From assembly GCA_036340075.1 (NCBI GenBank), contig JAYYZJ010000009.1, positions 1-12,128 of the forward strand: 12,128 nt of DNA. Direction: 5' to 3'. A model generated the notes under the pieces. That model made no database searches, was not told the DNA's origin, and saw only the letters and a program-made list of their open reading frames with translations. The DNA comes from Thermodesulfobacteriota bacterium. Its GTDB lineage: Bacteria; Desulfobacterota_D; UBA1144. Position 1 is the stretch's first letter. Each line of letters starts with the position of its first letter. Positions 2,413 through 7,689 of this stretch are shown here, in pieces. A program made the position numbers and the translations under genes.

Positions 2413-4152
2413 ATGAATTCTTTACTTTCTTTACTGCCAGAACATAAAAAAAGCATATTATTTGGTGTGCTTGGCCTTACTTTCGTTGACGGAATAATGT
2501 TGCTAGTTCCCATAATTATTGGTGATATAGTGACAAAATTATCTGAAGCTAACTCATCTGAATATTTATTATCTTCAATAAATAAAGCTTCTCTTTATCT
2601 ACTAATTTGTGGTTTAGTGATGGCTTTTTTTAGATTTGTATGGAGATATTTTTTGATGGGCACTGCCAGAAGAATAGAAAAGAAAATTAGAGAAAAGTAT
2701 TTTCAACAATTACAAGATTTACCTATGTCATTTTTTAGTCATAAGAATGGAGGTGATTTAATGACAAGAGGGGTAAATGATATAGAAAACATTAAAATGG
2801 CTTGCGGCTTTGGAATAGTTCTGGTGTACGATGGAATCGTACTCCTTGCATTTATATTTATTTCTATGTTTGTAATATCTCCAGACTTTACCATGTACGC
2901 TGCAATACCTTTTATTTTAATGGGTTTTTTGATTTTAAGATATGGTGACTATATACAACAACTCTTTTTAAACGTACAAAATACTTTTTCAAAATTAACG
3001 GAGGAAGTAAGAAAGATTATCTTTTCTATTCGTGCTATTAAGTCATTAAACGATGAACAAAATCAAATTGCTAAATTTACAAATGTAAGTAAATCATATG
3101 AAATGGAAAATCTAAATTTAATTAAAATATGGGGAGGGTATCAACCAGTTATAACTTTTTTAACAGGAATTTCTATATTAGTTTTAATTTTTCTTGGAAG
3201 CAATATGGTTTATGAAGATAAGATATCTTTAGGAGAATTTTCTTCTTTAATGGTCTATTTGACTATGTTAAGTTGGCCTGTAATCGCAATGGGAATGGCA
3301 GTTGATTTCTTAAAGAGAGGCAATGCTTCTTTATCAAGGGTTAATGAAATAATTTTTAATGAACCAGAGAAAGACGAAGATTTGCTTAAAAAAATTAATT
3401 CTATAAAAAAAATAGAATTCCGAAATGTTAATTTTTCCTATAAAAATGATGATTTTATTAAAAATCTATCTTTAGAAATCAGAAATTCACAGACTATCGG
3501 GATAACAGGTAAAACAGGATCGGGTAAATCTACTTTATGTAAGCTAATCATGAAATCTATTAAAGCTGAAAATATTTATCTTAATGATGATGAAATTAAC
3601 AATCTAAATAAAGAATCGATTAGATCTCAAATTGCCTATGTTGACCAGGAGCCGATTATTTTTTCTGGAACAATAAGAGAAAATGTAAGCTTTTTTGATA
3701 AACAACCAAAAGATTCTTCCATAATAGAATCTCTAGAGACAGCAGGCTTCCAGAAAGACTTATCTAAAATGCCCAAAGGTTTGGAGACTATTGTTGGAGA
3801 GAGAGGTTTGAGTCTTTCAGGTGGACAGAGACAAAGATTGTCTTTAGCTAGAGCATTATATCAAAATCCTAGTGTTTTAATATTAGATGATAATTTGTCA
3901 TCACTAGATGTTGAAACCGAATTAAAAATTTTAAACAATATCAAGAGAAAGTTTAAAGATAAAATACTTATTCTTGTGTCATCACGAATCTCAACAATTT
4001 TTACTTTTGATAAAATTGTTGTTCTTGATTCAGGGAAAATAGTACAGTTTGGGAACTCAAGTCTACTGGAAAACGAAGTAGGTTTATTTAGAGATTTGAT
4101 GTTAACTCAGAAAAATCTACCTGTTGAGGAAGAAACCAATGTCTCAGAATAA
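2413..4152 (+). CDS. ABC exporter half-transporter (TMD+NBD), MdlA/YheI-like subunit with degenerate catalytic residues
   Basis: N-terminal TM helices, GDLMTRGVND, Walker A GKTGSGKST, Q-loop YVDQE, signature LSGGQRQR, Walker B LILDD (no catalytic Glu), switch region VSSRIS (no His). Confidence 0.93.
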   Translation: MNSLLSLLPEHKKSILFGVLGLTFVDGIMLLVPIIIGDIVTKLSEANSSEYLLSSINKASLYLLICGLVMAFFRFVWRYFLMGTARRIEKKIREKYFQQLQDLPMSFFSHKNGGDLMTRGVNDIENIKMACGFGIVLVYDGIVLLAFIFISMFVISPDFTMYAAIPFILMGFLILRYGDYIQQLFLNVQNTFSKLTEEVRKIIFSIRAIKSLNDEQNQIAKFTNVSKSYEMENLNLIKIWGGYQPVITFLTGISILVLIFLGSNMVYEDKISLGEFSSLMVYLTMLSWPVIAMGMAVDFLKRGNASLSRVNEIIFNEPEKDEDLLKKINSIKKIEFRNVNFSYKNDDFIKNLSLEIRNSQTIGITGKTGSGKSTLCKLIMKSIKAENIYLNDDEINNLNKESIRSQIAYVDQEPIIFSGTIRENVSFFDKQPKDSSIIESLETAGFQKDLSKMPKGLETIVGERGLSLSGGQRQRLSLARALYQNPSVLILDDNLSSLDVETELKILNNIKRKFKDKILILVSSRISTIFTFDKIVVLDSGKIVQFGNSSLLENEVGLFRDLMLTQKNLPVEEETNVSE

Positions 4153-5767
4153 AAATATGATTCACTGGCTACTTTCTTTTTGTAAGCCCTATAGATTTCA
4201 GCTACTAATGGCTTTTGGATCAATGATATTAGTTGCTTTTTTTGAAATTACAATCCCTTATAAAATTAAAGAAATAGTTGACGGATTAATATTAAATCAA
4301 ATCAACAAAGACAATATACTGAATATATCCTTAATTGTTTTATCTTTGATTTGCGGAGTACTCTTTTTTAGTTGCATTTTTAGCTATGTGCTAAACATAA
4401 CAGGCCAAAAGATTATGCATCAAATAAGAACAACAGTTTTTAGTCATATAATGTCTCTTCCTCAGAGTTTTTTTGATAAAGAAAATGTTGGCAAAATAAC
4501 TACTAGAATCACTAATGATATTAATGCCTTAACTGAATTTTATACAAATGTATTAATACAATTTTTAAAAGAAATAATTGTTTTCTTTGGAATATTATTG
4601 GTGATTTTTCAATTTAATTCTAATCTTGCCCTTGTAATGATTGGTGTAAACATATTTATAATTATTTTTGCTTTTCTATACAAAAAAAGACTTAGAAGGG
4701 TCTATATTAAATTACGAAAAACTATAGCAGAACTTAATGTTTTTATAAGTGAAACAGTAAGAGGCTTGCCGGTATTAAAAATATTTAGTAAAGAGAAAAG
4801 GAATTATGAAAGGTTTCAGGAGTATAGTAATAGGAATTTTGAAGTAAACATGGAGCAAATGTATACGTTTGCAATCTTTAGACCGATGATTGAATTTATG
4901 TATGCATTTTCCCTATCGTTGGTTGTTTGGCTAGGCGGTAGATTGATAATTGATGAAAGTTTGTCTATAGGAAGTCTTCTGGCGATAATTTTCTATATAA
5001 GAATGTTGTTTAGACCTATACTCGAACTTGCTGATAAATATAATCTCTTACAGTCTGCCCTTGCAGCTAGCGATAATTTATTTTCAATTATTTCAACTAA
5101 ATCAGAAGAGAATGGCAATAGTGAATTTGATGGGAACTTTGAAACTATTTTATTTGATAATGTTTCTTTTAGTTATGATGAAGAAACCTGGGTATTGAAA
5201 AATTTCACTTTAGAAATAAAAAAAAGCGAATCTCTAGTTTTGCTGGGACCAACAGGTTCAGGAAAAACAACAATTGTTAATCTTCTTTTAGGGTTTTATT
5301 TGCCACAAGAAGGAGCTATCTATATAGATGGAAAACCATTAAGCAGTTTTGATCTTCGAACAGTTAGAGCAAATTTATCTGTAATAATGCAAGATACCCC
5401 CTTGCTTAACAATGTTGCAGACGAAGGGTCCTACCATGATATGGATATTGCCCAATCTAGAGGTGAAAAGCAGATTAAGAACATAAAGAAAGTAATAGAA
5501 AAGCCTTTTCATATAATAATATTAGACGAAGCAACATCTAATCTTGATTTAGATTTAGAGCAATATGTGAAGAATTCTTTAGATAAAATTAAAAATAAAA
5601 CATCTGTTTTGATAGCACATAGATTGAATTTAATAAAAGAATTGAGTCAAATTATTATATTAGAAAATGGTAAGATTAAAGAGAAAGGAATACACAAAAA
5701 GCTTATTTTAGAAGAAGGAGAATATAAAAAAATATTTAATTTAAACAAAGAATTCTACTTGAGATAG
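4139..5767 (+). CDS. ABC exporter half-transporter (TMD+NBD), MdlB/YheH-like partner subunit
   Basis: FFDKENVGKITTRITND, Walker A GPTGSGKTT, Walker B IILDEATSNLD, switch IAHRL; signature degenerate (QSRGE). Start chosen at ATG 4139 (GAGGA at 4126-4130) rather than TTG 4124; overlaps upstream gene by 14 nt. Confidence 0.9.
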   Translation: MSQNKNMIHWLLSFCKPYRFQLLMAFGSMILVAFFEITIPYKIKEIVDGLILNQINKDNILNISLIVLSLICGVLFFSCIFSYVLNITGQKIMHQIRTTVFSHIMSLPQSFFDKENVGKITTRITNDINALTEFYTNVLIQFLKEIIVFFGILLVIFQFNSNLALVMIGVNIFIIIFAFLYKKRLRRVYIKLRKTIAELNVFISETVRGLPVLKIFSKEKRNYERFQEYSNRNFEVNMEQMYTFAIFRPMIEFMYAFSLSLVVWLGGRLIIDESLSIGSLLAIIFYIRMLFRPILELADKYNLLQSALAASDNLFSIISTKSEENGNSEFDGNFETILFDNVSFSYDEETWVLKNFTLEIKKSESLVLLGPTGSGKTTIVNLLLGFYLPQEGAIYIDGKPLSSFDLRTVRANLSVIMQDTPLLNNVADEGSYHDMDIAQSRGEKQIKNIKKVIEKPFHIIILDEATSNLDLDLEQYVKNSLDKIKNKTSVLIAHRLNLIKELSQIIILENGKIKEKGIHKKLILEEGEYKKIFNLNKEFYLR

Positions 5768-5768
5768 C

Positions 5769-5797
5769 TTTCTTGTTTAAAATTTTCATTGTATAAT
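5769..5797 (+). promoter_or_regulatory. Putative promoter of tRNA-Pro
   Basis: Perfect TATAAT at 5792-5797, weak -35 TTTCTT at 5769-5774 with 17-bp spacer, 12 nt before the tRNA. Confidence 0.5.
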
Positions 5798-5809
5798 GGA
5801 TTTCTTAAT

Positions 5810-5882
5810 CGGGGTGTAGCGCAGCTGGTAGCGCACCTGTTTTGGGAACAGGGGGTCGGAGGTTCGAGCCCTCTCACCCCGA
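5810..5882 (+). tRNA. tRNA-Pro(TGG)
   Basis: Acceptor CGGGGTG/CACCCCG, anticodon arm CCTGT-TTTGGGA-ACAGG, T-arm GGAGG-TTCGAGC-CCTCT, discriminator A; no encoded CCA. Confidence 0.97.
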
Positions 5883-5917
5883 TTAAATAAATCAAATCAA
5901 TAGAATTAATTTTTCTT

Positions 5918-6121
5918 TTAATTTAAATCTAATTGAATATTAGCAAACAAACTATTTCGAGCTTTTCTTTCAATGCTTTTTCGATAAGCTTTTAAAGCAT
6001 AAGAATGTCTAAAAAAAGAAAGTTTCTCTTTAACAGACAATGCTACTTTTTTTGTTTGCCTTTGTACTTGGGTATTGTTAACGGTAACCACCAAGTTTGT
6101 TCTTAGTTCAGTCTTGAGCAT
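5918..6121 (-). CDS. Small basic hypothetical protein (67 aa); weak by-eye resemblance to ribosomal protein bS21
   Basis: Strong SD AAAGGAGGT (GGAGG at 6131-6135) 9 nt before ATG 6121; the track's TTG 6127 is too close to the SD. Candidate promoter at 6259-6267. K/R-rich with no TM segment. Confidence 0.7.
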   Translation of the reverse strand: MLKTELRTNLVVTVNNTQVQRQTKKVALSVKEKLSFFRHSYALKAYRKSIERKARNSLFANIQLDLN

Positions 6122-6155
6122 ATCCAAATACCTCCTTTAAAAAAGATATTCGAAC
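6122..6155 (-). promoter_or_regulatory. SD-sequestering hairpin (fourU-like) in front of the 67-aa ORF
   Basis: GAAUAUCUUUU-UUAA-AGGAGGUAUUU forms 11 contiguous pairs (4 G-U), extendable to 15 with GUUC/GGAU right up to the AUG. Confidence 0.55.
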
Positions 6156-6249
6156 TTGTAACGCATGTTCAATGCGAGTCTTTTAACCCATGACCTATGG
6201 AGGCTTTTCACTCATGTCCTATGAGGGTCTTTTTGGCCATGACCTATGG
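6152..6249 (-). ncRNA. Array of four tandem 24-25 nt repeats, each a predicted minimal H-type pseudoknot (cis-regulatory leader or processed small RNA)
   Basis: Units 6249-6226, 6225-6201, 6200-6177, 6176-6152; stem 1 CCAU/AUGG, CUCAU/AUGAG, CCAU/AUGG, CGCAU/AUGCG; loop-to-downstream stem 2 GGUC/GACC, GGAC/GCCU, GGUC/GACU, GAAC/GUUC; A-rich connecting loops. The repeat is certain, the fold is predicted. Confidence 0.7.
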
Positions 6250-6258
6250 AATACTTTA

Positions 6259-6267
6259 ATTATATCA
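6259..6267 (-). promoter_or_regulatory. Extended -10 promoter (TGnTATAAT) for the repeat array and small ORF
   Basis: Minus strand reads TGATATAAT at 6267-6259; predicted +1 near 6252-6253, 3-4 nt before the first repeat. No recognisable -35. Confidence 0.65.
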
Positions 6268-6280
6268 AATATATATTGAA

Positions 6281-6309
6281 TTTCATTAATAAATAATGGA
6301 AGATAAAAT
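6281..6309 (+). promoter_or_regulatory. Putative promoter of tRNA-Arg/tRNA-His
   Basis: TTTCAT (6281-6286), 17 bp, TAAAAT (6304-6309), 10 nt before tRNA-Arg; the region is very AT-rich so the match is not highly specific. Confidence 0.4.
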
Positions 6310-6319
6310 GATTAATGAT

Positions 6320-6393
<74 letters not shown>

Positions 6394-6403
6394 GGATTTT
6401 TAT

Positions 6404-6478
6404 GGTGGATGTAGCTCAGTTGGTTAGAGCATCGGTTTGTGGTTCCGAGGGTCGCGGGTTCGAATCCCGTCTTCCACC
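6404..6478 (+). tRNA. tRNA-His(GTG)
   Basis: Encoded G-1 (6404) opposite C73 (6478), acceptor GTGGATG/CTTCCAC, anticodon loop TTGTGGT, T-arm GCGGG-TTCGAAT-CCCGT; no complete CCA. Confidence 0.96.
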
Positions 6479-6507
6479 CTTATTATTAATACAAAAAAAT
6501 ATTTTAC

Positions 6508-7689
6508 TTATGTTGTATATAAAGAATTCAATTTTATATAATCATGGCCAATATCATTGGTTAGCATAAATGCTTGGCTTTTTCCTTTATTTAAATTAAT
6601 TGTAATTTCTATTGATTTTTTCTTCATTAATTTTTTGGCTGATGATAAATTCCCGTATAGTTCTCCATTCTTAACAATTTTTATTTTCCCTATATGTATA
6701 TCTATTTTGTTTGGTTTTATATAATTAATCTGTGTTGAACCAACAGATGCAATAATTCTCCCCCAGTTTGGATCTGATCCATACAATGCAGTCTTGAATA
6801 GTAGAGAGGTAGATATTTGTCTAGCAATAAAATCAGCTGATTTTTTATCTCTCGCTCCTTTTACCACGACTCTACAGATTTTAGTTGACCCCTCCCCATC
6901 TCTTACAATATCTTCCGCTAAAGAATCGAATATTCCCTGTATTTCTTTTGTTACTTTACCTAGACCTGCACTTTTATTGTCTATCATTTTGTTCTCTGCC
7001 ATTCCATTTGATAATGCTAATACTGTGTCGTTAGTAGACATATCACCATCAACACTGATGCAATTAAAAGAACTATCTACGGCGTTGTTGATTAATTTTT
7101 TAAAAGTATTTTTATTGAATTTTAAATCGGTTATAAGAAAACATAGCATTGTAGCCATCCCCGGATGTATCATTCCTGCCCCTTTAGCAATTCCTAATAT
7201 GTTTCCTTTGTGTTTACCAATGCTAACTTGAACATGCTTGTATTTTATATACTTGTCAGTTGTTCTAATTGATTCTGCGAAATCTTTAAAATTATTTTGA
7301 TTAAGAGATTTTACAAGCTTACTGATACCGTTATTTATTTTTCCGTAGTCTAGCTGAACTCCAATAATTCCAGTTGAAGAAGGAAAGAAATTATATGATT
7401 GATAACCAGTTGCTTTGGACAGACTATTTAATATTTTGTTTGTTGCTATAACGCCTTTATTGCCTGTGCATGCATTTGCATTTCCGCTATTCGCAATTAC
7501 TCCAAATAATTCATCAAATCTTAGTATTTCTTTCCCAACTTCTAATGGAGCAGCAATAACTTTATTTTTTGTAAAAACCGCATGGGCTATGCATTTTTCG
7601 TCTGATAAAATTAAACCCAAATCTTTTTTATTAGATTTTTTAAGTCCACAATTAATACCCGCAAATCTAAAACCCTTAACTTTAACCAT
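6508..7689 (-). CDS. argJ: Glutamate N-acetyltransferase / ornithine acetyltransferase ArgJ
   Basis: Motifs VFTKN, ANSGNANACTG, SSTGIIG, AKGAGMIHPGMATML, SFNCISVDGDMSTNDT, DGEGSTK, DPNWGRI, C-terminal YTT; TAATG coupling to recO. Confidence 0.97.
   Translation of the reverse strand: MVKVKGFRFAGINCGLKKSNKKDLGLILSDEKCIAHAVFTKNKVIAAPLEVGKEILRFDELFGVIANSGNANACTGNKGVIATNKILNSLSKATGYQSYNFFPSSTGIIGVQLDYGKINNGISKLVKSLNQNNFKDFAESIRTTDKYIKYKHVQVSIGKHKGNILGIAKGAGMIHPGMATMLCFLITDLKFNKNTFKKLINNAVDSSFNCISVDGDMSTNDTVLALSNGMAENKMIDNKSAGLGKVTKEIQGIFDSLAEDIVRDGEGSTKICRVVVKGARDKKSADFIARQISTSLLFKTALYGSDPNWGRIIASVGSTQINYIKPNKIDIHIGKIKIVKNGELYGNLSSAKKLMKKKSIEITINLNKGKSQAFMLTNDIGHDYIKLNSLYTT

Follow-up and report, generated by a model that had tools for sequence, protein, structure and literature searches.

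The minus strand of a 12,128-nucleotide (nt) stretch of Thermodesulfobacteriota bacterium contig JAYYZJ010000009.1, referred to here in its full length as the window, carries a compact module in which a promoter-like site, a tandem array of four repeat units, a helix enclosing a Shine-Dalgarno (SD) sequence, and an open reading frame (ORF) for a basic protein of 67 amino acids (aa) follow one another between tRNA genes of the opposite strand (Table 1). The module is best explained as a self-contained, vertically inherited post-transcriptional control unit. The reading that we prefer, with a probability of roughly 0.4, is that the ORF is preceded by a translational leader that is off by default, and that the array of putative pseudoknots within this leader serves as a platform bound by a partner, most likely the encoded protein itself. 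The whole looks like a new RNA motif together with an orphan protein family in a narrow clade.

The module is found intact in relatives of the window. A scan of genomes matched 48 stretches, five of which passed tblastn, and the three that cover residues 1-67 of the protein (loci L001, L002 and L003) all keep the promoter, the four units, the SD helix and the 67-codon ORF in the same tRNA-flanked slot, with argJ, tRNA-His, tRNA-Arg, the module, tRNA-Pro and an ABC exporter syntenic with the window. Co-occurrence of array and ORF, which a preliminary description of this DNA had proposed as a check on the functional link between them, is seen in all three full-length relatives, with the array in the same place, and hence in four of four loci when the window is counted. 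The other two matches (L004 and L005) are partial, at 29 and 12 residues, have no array, and were treated as spurious. Identity across the five more distant locus pairs is 88-93.5% for the leader, 88-91.5% for the upstream divergent-promoter region and 67-82% for the ORF, and for the 3' flank it is 43-53% in the four distant pairs. The argJ nucleotides are 68.5-68.6% identical between the window and L001 and L002, with third codon positions at 46-47.5%, and the ArgJ protein is 69% identical between the window and L002; in the distant clade the 67-aa protein is 51-57% identical against approximately 90% for the leader. Judged from these alignments, the leader is far more constrained than the protein that it precedes and than the housekeeping enzyme argJ.

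The SD helix is the strongest single feature of the module. Its energy is -13.5 kcal/mol at 37 °C (z = -5.02), or -12.7 kcal/mol in a separate calculation of the full helix, and none of 200 shuffles folds as well as the former; AAGGAGG lies in its 3' arm, the helix ends one base before the AUG, and all of its 15 base pairs (bp) are invariant in the four loci, with variation in the helix loop. A strong SD hidden in a hairpin had been described previously and is borne out by this helix. Because so stable a structure buries the SD, translation of the 67-aa protein is predicted to be off by default. The energy reaches -18 to -27 kcal/mol at 4-25 °C, and the upper 11 bp, which would remain if the pseudoknot of unit R4 took the basal 4 bp, account for -6.9 kcal/mol at 37 °C. 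In RNA thermometers of the fourU type a run of U residues pairs with the SD, and the resulting helix melts in the physiological range; the corresponding UCUUUU:AGGAGG pairing is present here, and the helix is seemingly too stable by comparison with typical thermometer energies. An anti-sequestrator formed by the R4 A-tract and CUUUU was considered and rejected, as it is weak and is broken by the window's own C at column 101.

Immediately upstream of this helix the four units, R1 to R4, follow one another without spacers. In the proposed structure each has a stem, S1, of 4-5 bp in which the core CAU/AUG is constant, then a 5-nt loop that uses its last four bases to pair with a tail, and a linker of 6-7 nt, ending AAAA, that precedes the tail. 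Loop-tail pairing is perfect in R1, R3 (with one G-U) and R4; in R2 there is either one A-C mismatch, kept in all loci, or a shifted register AGG:CCU of 3 bp. Unit R1 has a covariance-model score of 33 bits, and both of its stem changes in L003 yield U-G pairs; R2 is invariant in the four loci apart from linker column 50; U6201 is common to R2 and R3; the pairs of R4 covary relative to R1 and R3; and the R4 tail (6155-6152) doubles as the opening 4 nt of the SD-sequestering helix. Tandem Repeats Finder reports a period of 24 with 3.1 copies and a score of 85 (6176-6250), and a repeat search returns a 49-nt double unit, 6155-6201 versus 6204-6250, with 79% identity between R1R2 and R3R4. By sequence, then, the units alternate in two classes, R1/R3 and R2/R4, so that the functional unit may be the 49-nt pair, of which there are two copies. 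In the window there are exactly three occurrences of the core CATAGGNCATG, all of them in the array and in phase, and the fourth unit has two mismatches to it.

The proposed pairing is retained throughout the relatives. In the alignment of the four leaders 176 of 176 cells pair in accordance with the structure, as compared to 33-50% when the partners are slid; 40 of the 44 pairs are invariant, three vary on one side and one varies on both. This last, the only double compensatory change, is the R3 loop-tail pair 64:82, which reads G-U, A-U, U-A and U-A across the four loci, and its neighbor 66:80 is U-A in two loci and U-G in two. The 99-nt array has 12 variable columns; the five that are in paired positions all retain pairing, and the remaining seven fall at the single unpaired loop base, at the linker start, or just outside a stem. 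When the 16 units are aligned with each other, 94.4% of cells are paired (29-41% when slid) and 15 cells are changed on both sides; the covariation score of 0.451, against 0.184 ± 0.029, is reached by none of 500 shuffles, although the rows are paralogues and orthologues and so not independent, and a 1-nt deletion throws the R1 row of L003 out of alignment. The G-U pairs, five in the SD helix and others in R3 and in R1 of L003, become A-C mismatches on the opposite strand, which argues that the ORF-sense strand is the one that folds. Phasing, conservation and covariation exceed chance, and single-unit geometry does not.

From these patterns the units are likely, but not proven, to form compact H-type pseudoknots. 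Their helices are weak (S1, -1.6 to -4.1 kcal/mol; S2, -0.8 to -3.8 kcal/mol), so that a stabilizing partner is plausible, and stacking, Mg2+, low temperature or such a bound partner is probably required for the pseudoknots to form. Because the units abut without spacers, R2 and R3 even sharing one base, end-to-end stacking is geometrically possible, and the four could form a single rod. Two further ideas about the units were discarded. Upstream ORFs (uORFs) beginning at the AUG in each unit have stops and frames that are not conserved (TGA, TAA, TCA and TCA at column 50, and the 1-nt deletion in L003), and a 9-codon uORF from the AUG of the R4 stem (6137-6166, minus strand), which runs through the 5' arm of the SD helix to a stop in its loop, is present in the window only, since a C-to-A difference shortens it to two codons in the three relatives. 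A T-loop-like GUUCGAAU and complementarity of UGGN/NCCA to tRNA ends were set aside as numerology, with no support.

Transcription of the module would be driven from a near-consensus minus-strand -10 element, TGATATAAT (6267-6259), which has a weak -35 (ATGAAA) 16 nt upstream. The promoter scan matches 10 of 12 positions with TG ahead of the -10, and the -10 is identical in all four loci; the region 5700-6600 contains three promoter-like sites, as compared to 3.4 ± 1.6 in shuffles, so that their count is not above chance. The transcription start site is predicted near 6254-6250 (about 6252), which would give a leader of approximately 131 nt with the repeat array as its first 99 nt and the SD helix as its last 34 nt. 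The nested fold of the entire leader is unremarkable (z = -0.39). Both the placing of this promoter ahead of the first repeat and the picture of four pseudoknot-capable repeats filling almost the whole of a leader of ~130 nt, as given in the preliminary description, hold up, the repeats being four contiguous units of 99 nt in all. That description missed the greater conservation of the leader than of the protein, the two alternating classes of unit, the sharing of the R4 tail with the SD helix, and the default-off character of that helix.

The substitution pattern of the ORF is that of a real coding gene under purifying selection. It has the same length and no indels in the four loci, the other two frames contain 3-8 stops each, the ratio of nonsynonymous to synonymous divergence (dN/dS) is 0.20-0.34 in five of the six locus pairs and 0.63 in the sixth, and the constraint is stronger on codons 28-67. 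We note that synonymous divergence (pS) is 0.32-0.64 in the ORF, where third positions are 60-76% identical, and 0.76-0.80 in argJ, where they are 46-47.5% identical. The lower value in the ORF suggests either extra constraint at the mRNA level or strong codon bias. The product is rich in lysine and arginine, as reported earlier, with 14 such residues versus four aspartate and glutamate, a net charge of +10 and an isoelectric point (pI) of 10.8; across the family these range from +10 to +12 and from 10.6 to 11.3. A word-indexed search for the family returned four clusters and an exhaustive representative search two clusters at the 50% identity level, and a profile search extended these to 11 protein clusters with 51-96% identity, all exactly 67 aa long and from marine and other metagenomic sources. 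Across 12 sequences 24 columns are invariant, concentrated in residues 28-66 and in the C-terminal LF-NIQL-L. Given 6 or 12 sequences, AlphaFold2 predicts two helices, at residues 2-23 and 30-66, with a predicted local distance difference test (pLDDT) of 75.5-76.6 and a predicted template modeling score (pTM) of 0.37-0.38; the first of these helices is uncertain, because the second clade carries a proline at position 18 within it. By record title L002 belongs to Thermodesulfobacteriota and L001 and L003 to uncultured Spirochaetales, though all three are syntenic with the window, and at least one of these labels is probably wrong.

Searches for a known family of the protein returned little. Pfam, NCBIfam and PADLOC (E up to 10, with Pfam run over 12 members) and PHROGs gave no above-threshold match, the sole near-match in PHROGs being a PHROG of unknown function for one member (E 0.16). 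Neither the CsrA model of Pfam at E up to 10 nor the ribosomal models of Pfam and NCBIfam match any of the 12 members, and a search for longer or fused relatives found none. A sequence profile against PDB gave one chance match only, to CTP synthase (E 1.4); Foldseek gave none in PDB and one in BFVD at E 9.6, and ESM Atlas no usable match. A likeness to Rop, a helical hairpin that binds stacked RNA helices, was dropped, the literature search having given nothing useful. One of the 12 members (P0011) matches FlbT (PF07378) with 19.4 bits and E 0.0011, below the gathering score of 27, through residues 2-47 aligned to profile positions 1-46 of 125; the other 11 do not match. FlbT is a post-transcriptional regulator interacting with flagellin mRNA at its 5' untranslated region (UTR), according to PMC4894983, and the match is a sub-threshold lead that we do not count as evidence.

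Table 1. Features of the module and the flanking tRNA genes, in window coordinates.
Feature	Coordinates	Strand	Description
tRNA-Pro	5809-5883	+	
ORF	5918..6121	-	67 codons plus stop; ATG at 6121; orphan basic protein with invariant C-terminal LF-NIQL-L
SD helix	6155-6122	-	15 bp, five G-U pairs, 4-nt loop; UCUUUU run pairs with AGGAGG
Shine-Dalgarno AAGGAGG	6137-6131	-	9 nt before ATG; GGAGG invariant in four of four loci
Unit R4	6176-6152	-	Stem CGCAU/AUGCG, loop UGAAC, linker UUACAA, tail GUUC
Unit R3	6201-6177	-	Stem (U)CCAU/AUGG(G), loop AGGUC, linker UUAAAA, tail GACU
Unit R2	6225-6201	-	Stem CUCAU/AUGAG, loop AGGAC, linker UGAAAA, tail GCCU
Unit R1	6250-6226	-	Stem CCAU/AUGG, loop AGGUC, linker CCAAAAA, tail GACC pairing with loop GGUC
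Promoter-like site	6259..6286	-	-35 ATGAAA (6286-6281), 16-nt spacer, TG plus TATAAT (-10, 6264-6259)
tRNA-Arg	6319-6394	+	
tRNA-His	6405-6479	+	

Taken as a default-off leader with a binding platform, the module would work as follows. The array would act as a sequence-specific platform for a trans-acting factor, most probably the encoded protein, which is basic enough to be a plausible nucleic-acid binder, and binding would couple the level of the protein to its own translation. This could come about either by a stabilized R4 pseudoknot removing 4 bp from the base of the SD helix, or by a rigid ribonucleoprotein beside the SD trapping or excluding the ribosome, and every transcript would carry four sites that titrate the protein. 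Autoregulation, the first of the three models that the preliminary description put forward with no preference among them, remains the best fit as a putative mechanism.

Several points weigh against this. That the protein binds its leader is argued from context; the protein changes much faster than the RNA, a pattern that a more conserved cellular partner would explain no less well. Extra repression seems unnecessary with an SD helix of such stability, and because formation of the R4 pseudoknot would open the base of that helix, the feedback would be positive and not negative. Four sites also exceed those of the autogenous operators known to us. As for the structure itself, the geometry of a single unit (4 bp + 4 bp, G-U allowed) is found at 56 sites on both strands of the window, as compared to 53.2 ± 7.4 in 200 shuffles, and since it is so common by chance the case for pseudoknots is built on phasing, conservation and covariation and not on the window alone. 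The covariation score of the four-locus alignment is matched by 84 of 500 shuffles and is not significant by itself, because variation is scarce with 40 of the 44 pairs invariant, and the 16-unit alignment that does reach significance has the shared ancestry of its rows noted above. RNAalifold moreover offers a nested fold that pairs the stem of R1 with the identical stem of R3; this leaves the covariation at 64:82 unexplained.

Leaders of this general kind are known. Ribosomal protein S15 on E. coli rpsO and gp32 on gene 32 of phage T4 bind pseudoknots in their own leaders, and the module resembles both in that a small basic protein is encoded just after a (here putatively) pseudoknotted leader, which reaches up to the SD and start codon of the gene, with control, predicted in the present case, at translation initiation. 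It differs from them in presenting four contiguous 25-nt pseudoknots of two alternating classes and not one, in a separate 15-bp helix that already hides the SD, and in a protein that belongs to no ribosomal or known RNA-binding family and whose binding is only putative. The upstream pseudoknot domain of tobacco mosaic virus stacks into a quasi-continuous helix. Its consecutive, spacer-less small pseudoknots form a protein-binding platform (PMC4683447), and the array could be like them in this respect; that domain is viral and eukaryotic, belongs to a 3' UTR and is unrelated to the array in sequence, and for the array it is the zero-length spacers that suggest stacking.

Among the other explanations, the array could be a platform or sponge for some other conserved cellular factor, or a 5' stabilizer, with the small ORF as regulated cargo; a CsrA-like GGA binder, Hfq on the A-tracts, ribosomal protein S1 and an RNase are candidate partners, and we consider this somewhat unlikely. 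A near-invariant RNA ahead of a diverging protein is expected with a slowly evolving host partner, and an AAAA tract is invariant in every unit. In E. coli the leader of csrA has four CsrA sites and is self-repressed, and the module shares with CsrA/Rsm sites the repeated short hairpins, some A-GGA loops, a GGA-containing SD and a small downstream protein (61-67 aa). GGA is present in R2 (CAU-AGGAC-AUG) and in the SD at all four loci, but it is limited to these: among the four loops only that of R2 has it, R1 and R3 have GGU, and the R3 loop is not conserved as GG. CsrA represses through binding of GGA motifs (PMC4894983), and a CsrA/Rsm-binding RNA was rejected here for lack of multiple GGA motifs in loops. 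Since the R3 loop reads AGGUC, AAGUC, AUGUC and GUGUC across the loci, and the R4 loop UGAAC or AGAAC, the loops appear to be kept for pairing rather than for GGA. When 34,412 bases, too little sequence for a regulon test, were searched with a covariance model of the unit, the 16 training units were the only copies detected (next best E 0.28).

The preliminary description had also raised a type III toxin-antitoxin-like pair. As considered here, RNA processed into 25-nt units or 49-nt pairs would hold a harmful small protein captive, and SD occlusion, in place of a terminator, would keep the RNA in excess. The order of genes and elements stands up, as does the repeat size when the array is read as 49 nt in 2.0 copies (79% identity), and the toxin family, the terminator and the distribution do not, making such a pair quite unlikely. 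In a published survey of toxIN, cptIN and tenpIN (PMC3401426), arrays have repeats of 31-62 nt in 1.9-5.6 copies (cptIN, 40-48 nt and 1.9-3.4; tenpIN, 39-57 nt and 1.9-3.0), a terminator palindrome lies between array and toxin gene, and the toxin is a ToxN, CptN or TenpN endoribonuclease. The module agrees with these systems in its promoter, tandem pseudoknot-capable repeats with A-rich tracts, palindrome and gene, in that order, the 49-nt reading falls inside the published ranges, and a default-off SD helix would yield the high ratio of RNA to protein that such an RNA-excess device requires. Read as 24-25 nt in 3.1-4 copies, however, the array is shorter than any of the family ranges, and the palindrome here sequesters the SD and is followed by AUGCUC with no U-tract, there being no minus-strand terminator in 5700-6600. 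The protein has no similarity to ToxN, CptN or TenpN nor to any PADLOC or Pfam model, and with two predicted helices in 67 aa it is far from family means of 149-168 aa. The slot is a conserved, syntenic one in the core genome among housekeeping genes (ArgJ proteins 69% identical) with a near-invariant RNA, unlike patchy, mobile or fast-evolving defense loci, and blastn found no phage or plasmid copy, its five matches to phages being short, AT-rich and irrelevant (9-13% coverage) and those to plasmids none. A related proposal, still unlikely in our view, would see here a new kind of RNA-array/protein pair, chromosomal and vertically inherited, that keeps the logic of type III systems with an unrelated and much smaller partner in a housekeeping module: a spacer-less rod of four pseudoknots would capture the cis-encoded two-helix basic protein stoichiometrically, and SD occlusion, with no terminator, would set the ratio of RNA to protein.

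We regard as very unlikely a tandem cooperative riboswitch or physical sensor, in which a ligand, an ion or temperature would stabilize the pseudoknots and R4 would relay this to the SD helix. Such a relay is suggested by the R4 tail doubling as the base of that helix, so that the two structures are mutually exclusive, and marginal pseudoknot stability is typical of ligand-dependent folds, but removal of the 4 bp still leaves the 11-bp helix described above, and the full helix at 4-25 °C seems too stable for a thermometer. The shape of the units recalls the preQ1-I riboswitch, likewise a very small H-type pseudoknot beside an SD, with a hairpin and an A-rich tail that pairs with the loop. The units here are 25 nt versus about 34, four in tandem, with the SD in a separate helix, and have neither a second loop nor a conserved pocket base; their sole unpaired loop base is variable (A, U or G), and conservation among unpaired bases is confined to the A-tract, which leaves little for a pocket. 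No riboswitch family, preQ1-I (RF00522) included, was found by Rfam in the window at the gathering threshold or in 5880-6330 at E up to 10, and the gene gives no hint of a ligand. The riboswitch half of the third model in the preliminary description is weakened on these grounds, and its sponge half is carried by the alternative of another cellular factor. Finally, a role at the level of DNA or of the plus strand, as repressor operators or as weak tandem terminators insulating tRNA-Pro from tRNA-Arg, is highly improbable. A CATG-centered palindrome is present in each unit, the antisense of R4 is called terminator-like (6162-6176, plus strand), and the module does sit between plus-strand tRNA genes. 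Yet the G-U pairs of R1 (L003), R3 and the SD helix (five) turn into A-C mismatches in that reading, the compensatory loop-tail change in R3 alters base identity while keeping pairing, unlike operator half-sites, and the plus-strand T-runs begin only 4 nt beyond stems of 4-5 bp, with one terminator-like site found against 0.6 ± 0.9 expected.

The module is convergent with tRNA-Pro and divergent from tRNA-Arg and tRNA-His, and its neighbors are ordinary chromosomal genes: ApbE, two ABC exporter genes, ArgJ, RecO, MgtE, UbiA, a UbiX-like gene and UbiD, in a window of 30.9% G+C. The ABC exporter genes (2413-4152 and 4124-5767, plus strand) are adjacent with a 29-base overlap, each with a membrane and an ATPase domain, and look like a heterodimeric exporter pair; the second has a partial ABC_tran match only (profile positions 1-74 of 137). 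The 59-bp spacer from the module -10 to tRNA-Arg (6260-6318), 88-91.5% identical in the more distant locus pairs, presumably contains the divergent tRNA-Arg/His promoter, and plus-strand TTGAAT and TAAAAT hexamers were spotted in it by eye only. On the plus strand each unit is a weak hairpin with a T-run 4 nt downstream, and the sole terminator-like call in 5700-6600 is the R4 antisense followed by the antisense of the R3 A-tract (6162-6176). Between the ORF stop and the 3' end of the convergent tRNA-Pro there are 34 nt (5884-5917) and no minus-strand terminator was detected, so that the module mRNA may extend into tRNA-Pro antisense. Downstream of the ORF in L002 (3240-3256) an SD-like AAGGAAGG stands before a start-stop pair, ATG then TAA; the ATG is absent from L003, and the segment from the window and L001.

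Rfam identifies only the three tRNAs in the window at the gathering threshold, and in 5880-6330 at E up to 10 there are four noise matches (sroB, Tombus_3_III, SNORD78, and alpha_tmRNA at 6.6 bits); no description of the motif was found in the open literature searched, either with the repeat core as a string or under tandem pseudoknot leaders. If array and protein are partners, they would constitute a compact and portable pair of a 25-nt RNA unit and a 67-aa protein, an addition to the classes of small RNA-binding protein, a bacterial instance of a regulatory platform made of stacked pseudoknots with no spacers, and an example of type III-like control of RNA and protein stoichiometry outside of defense systems, with a general reach limited by the narrow distribution of the family, which comprises 11 clusters whose proteins are all 67 aa long. 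Should the partner be some other factor, the leader would still be a candidate for a new family of structured RNA. With a conservation about twice that of neutral sites (88-93.5% versus 46-47.5%) in an uncultured marine lineage, it presents a clean target for motif discovery and for the mining of metatranscriptomes.

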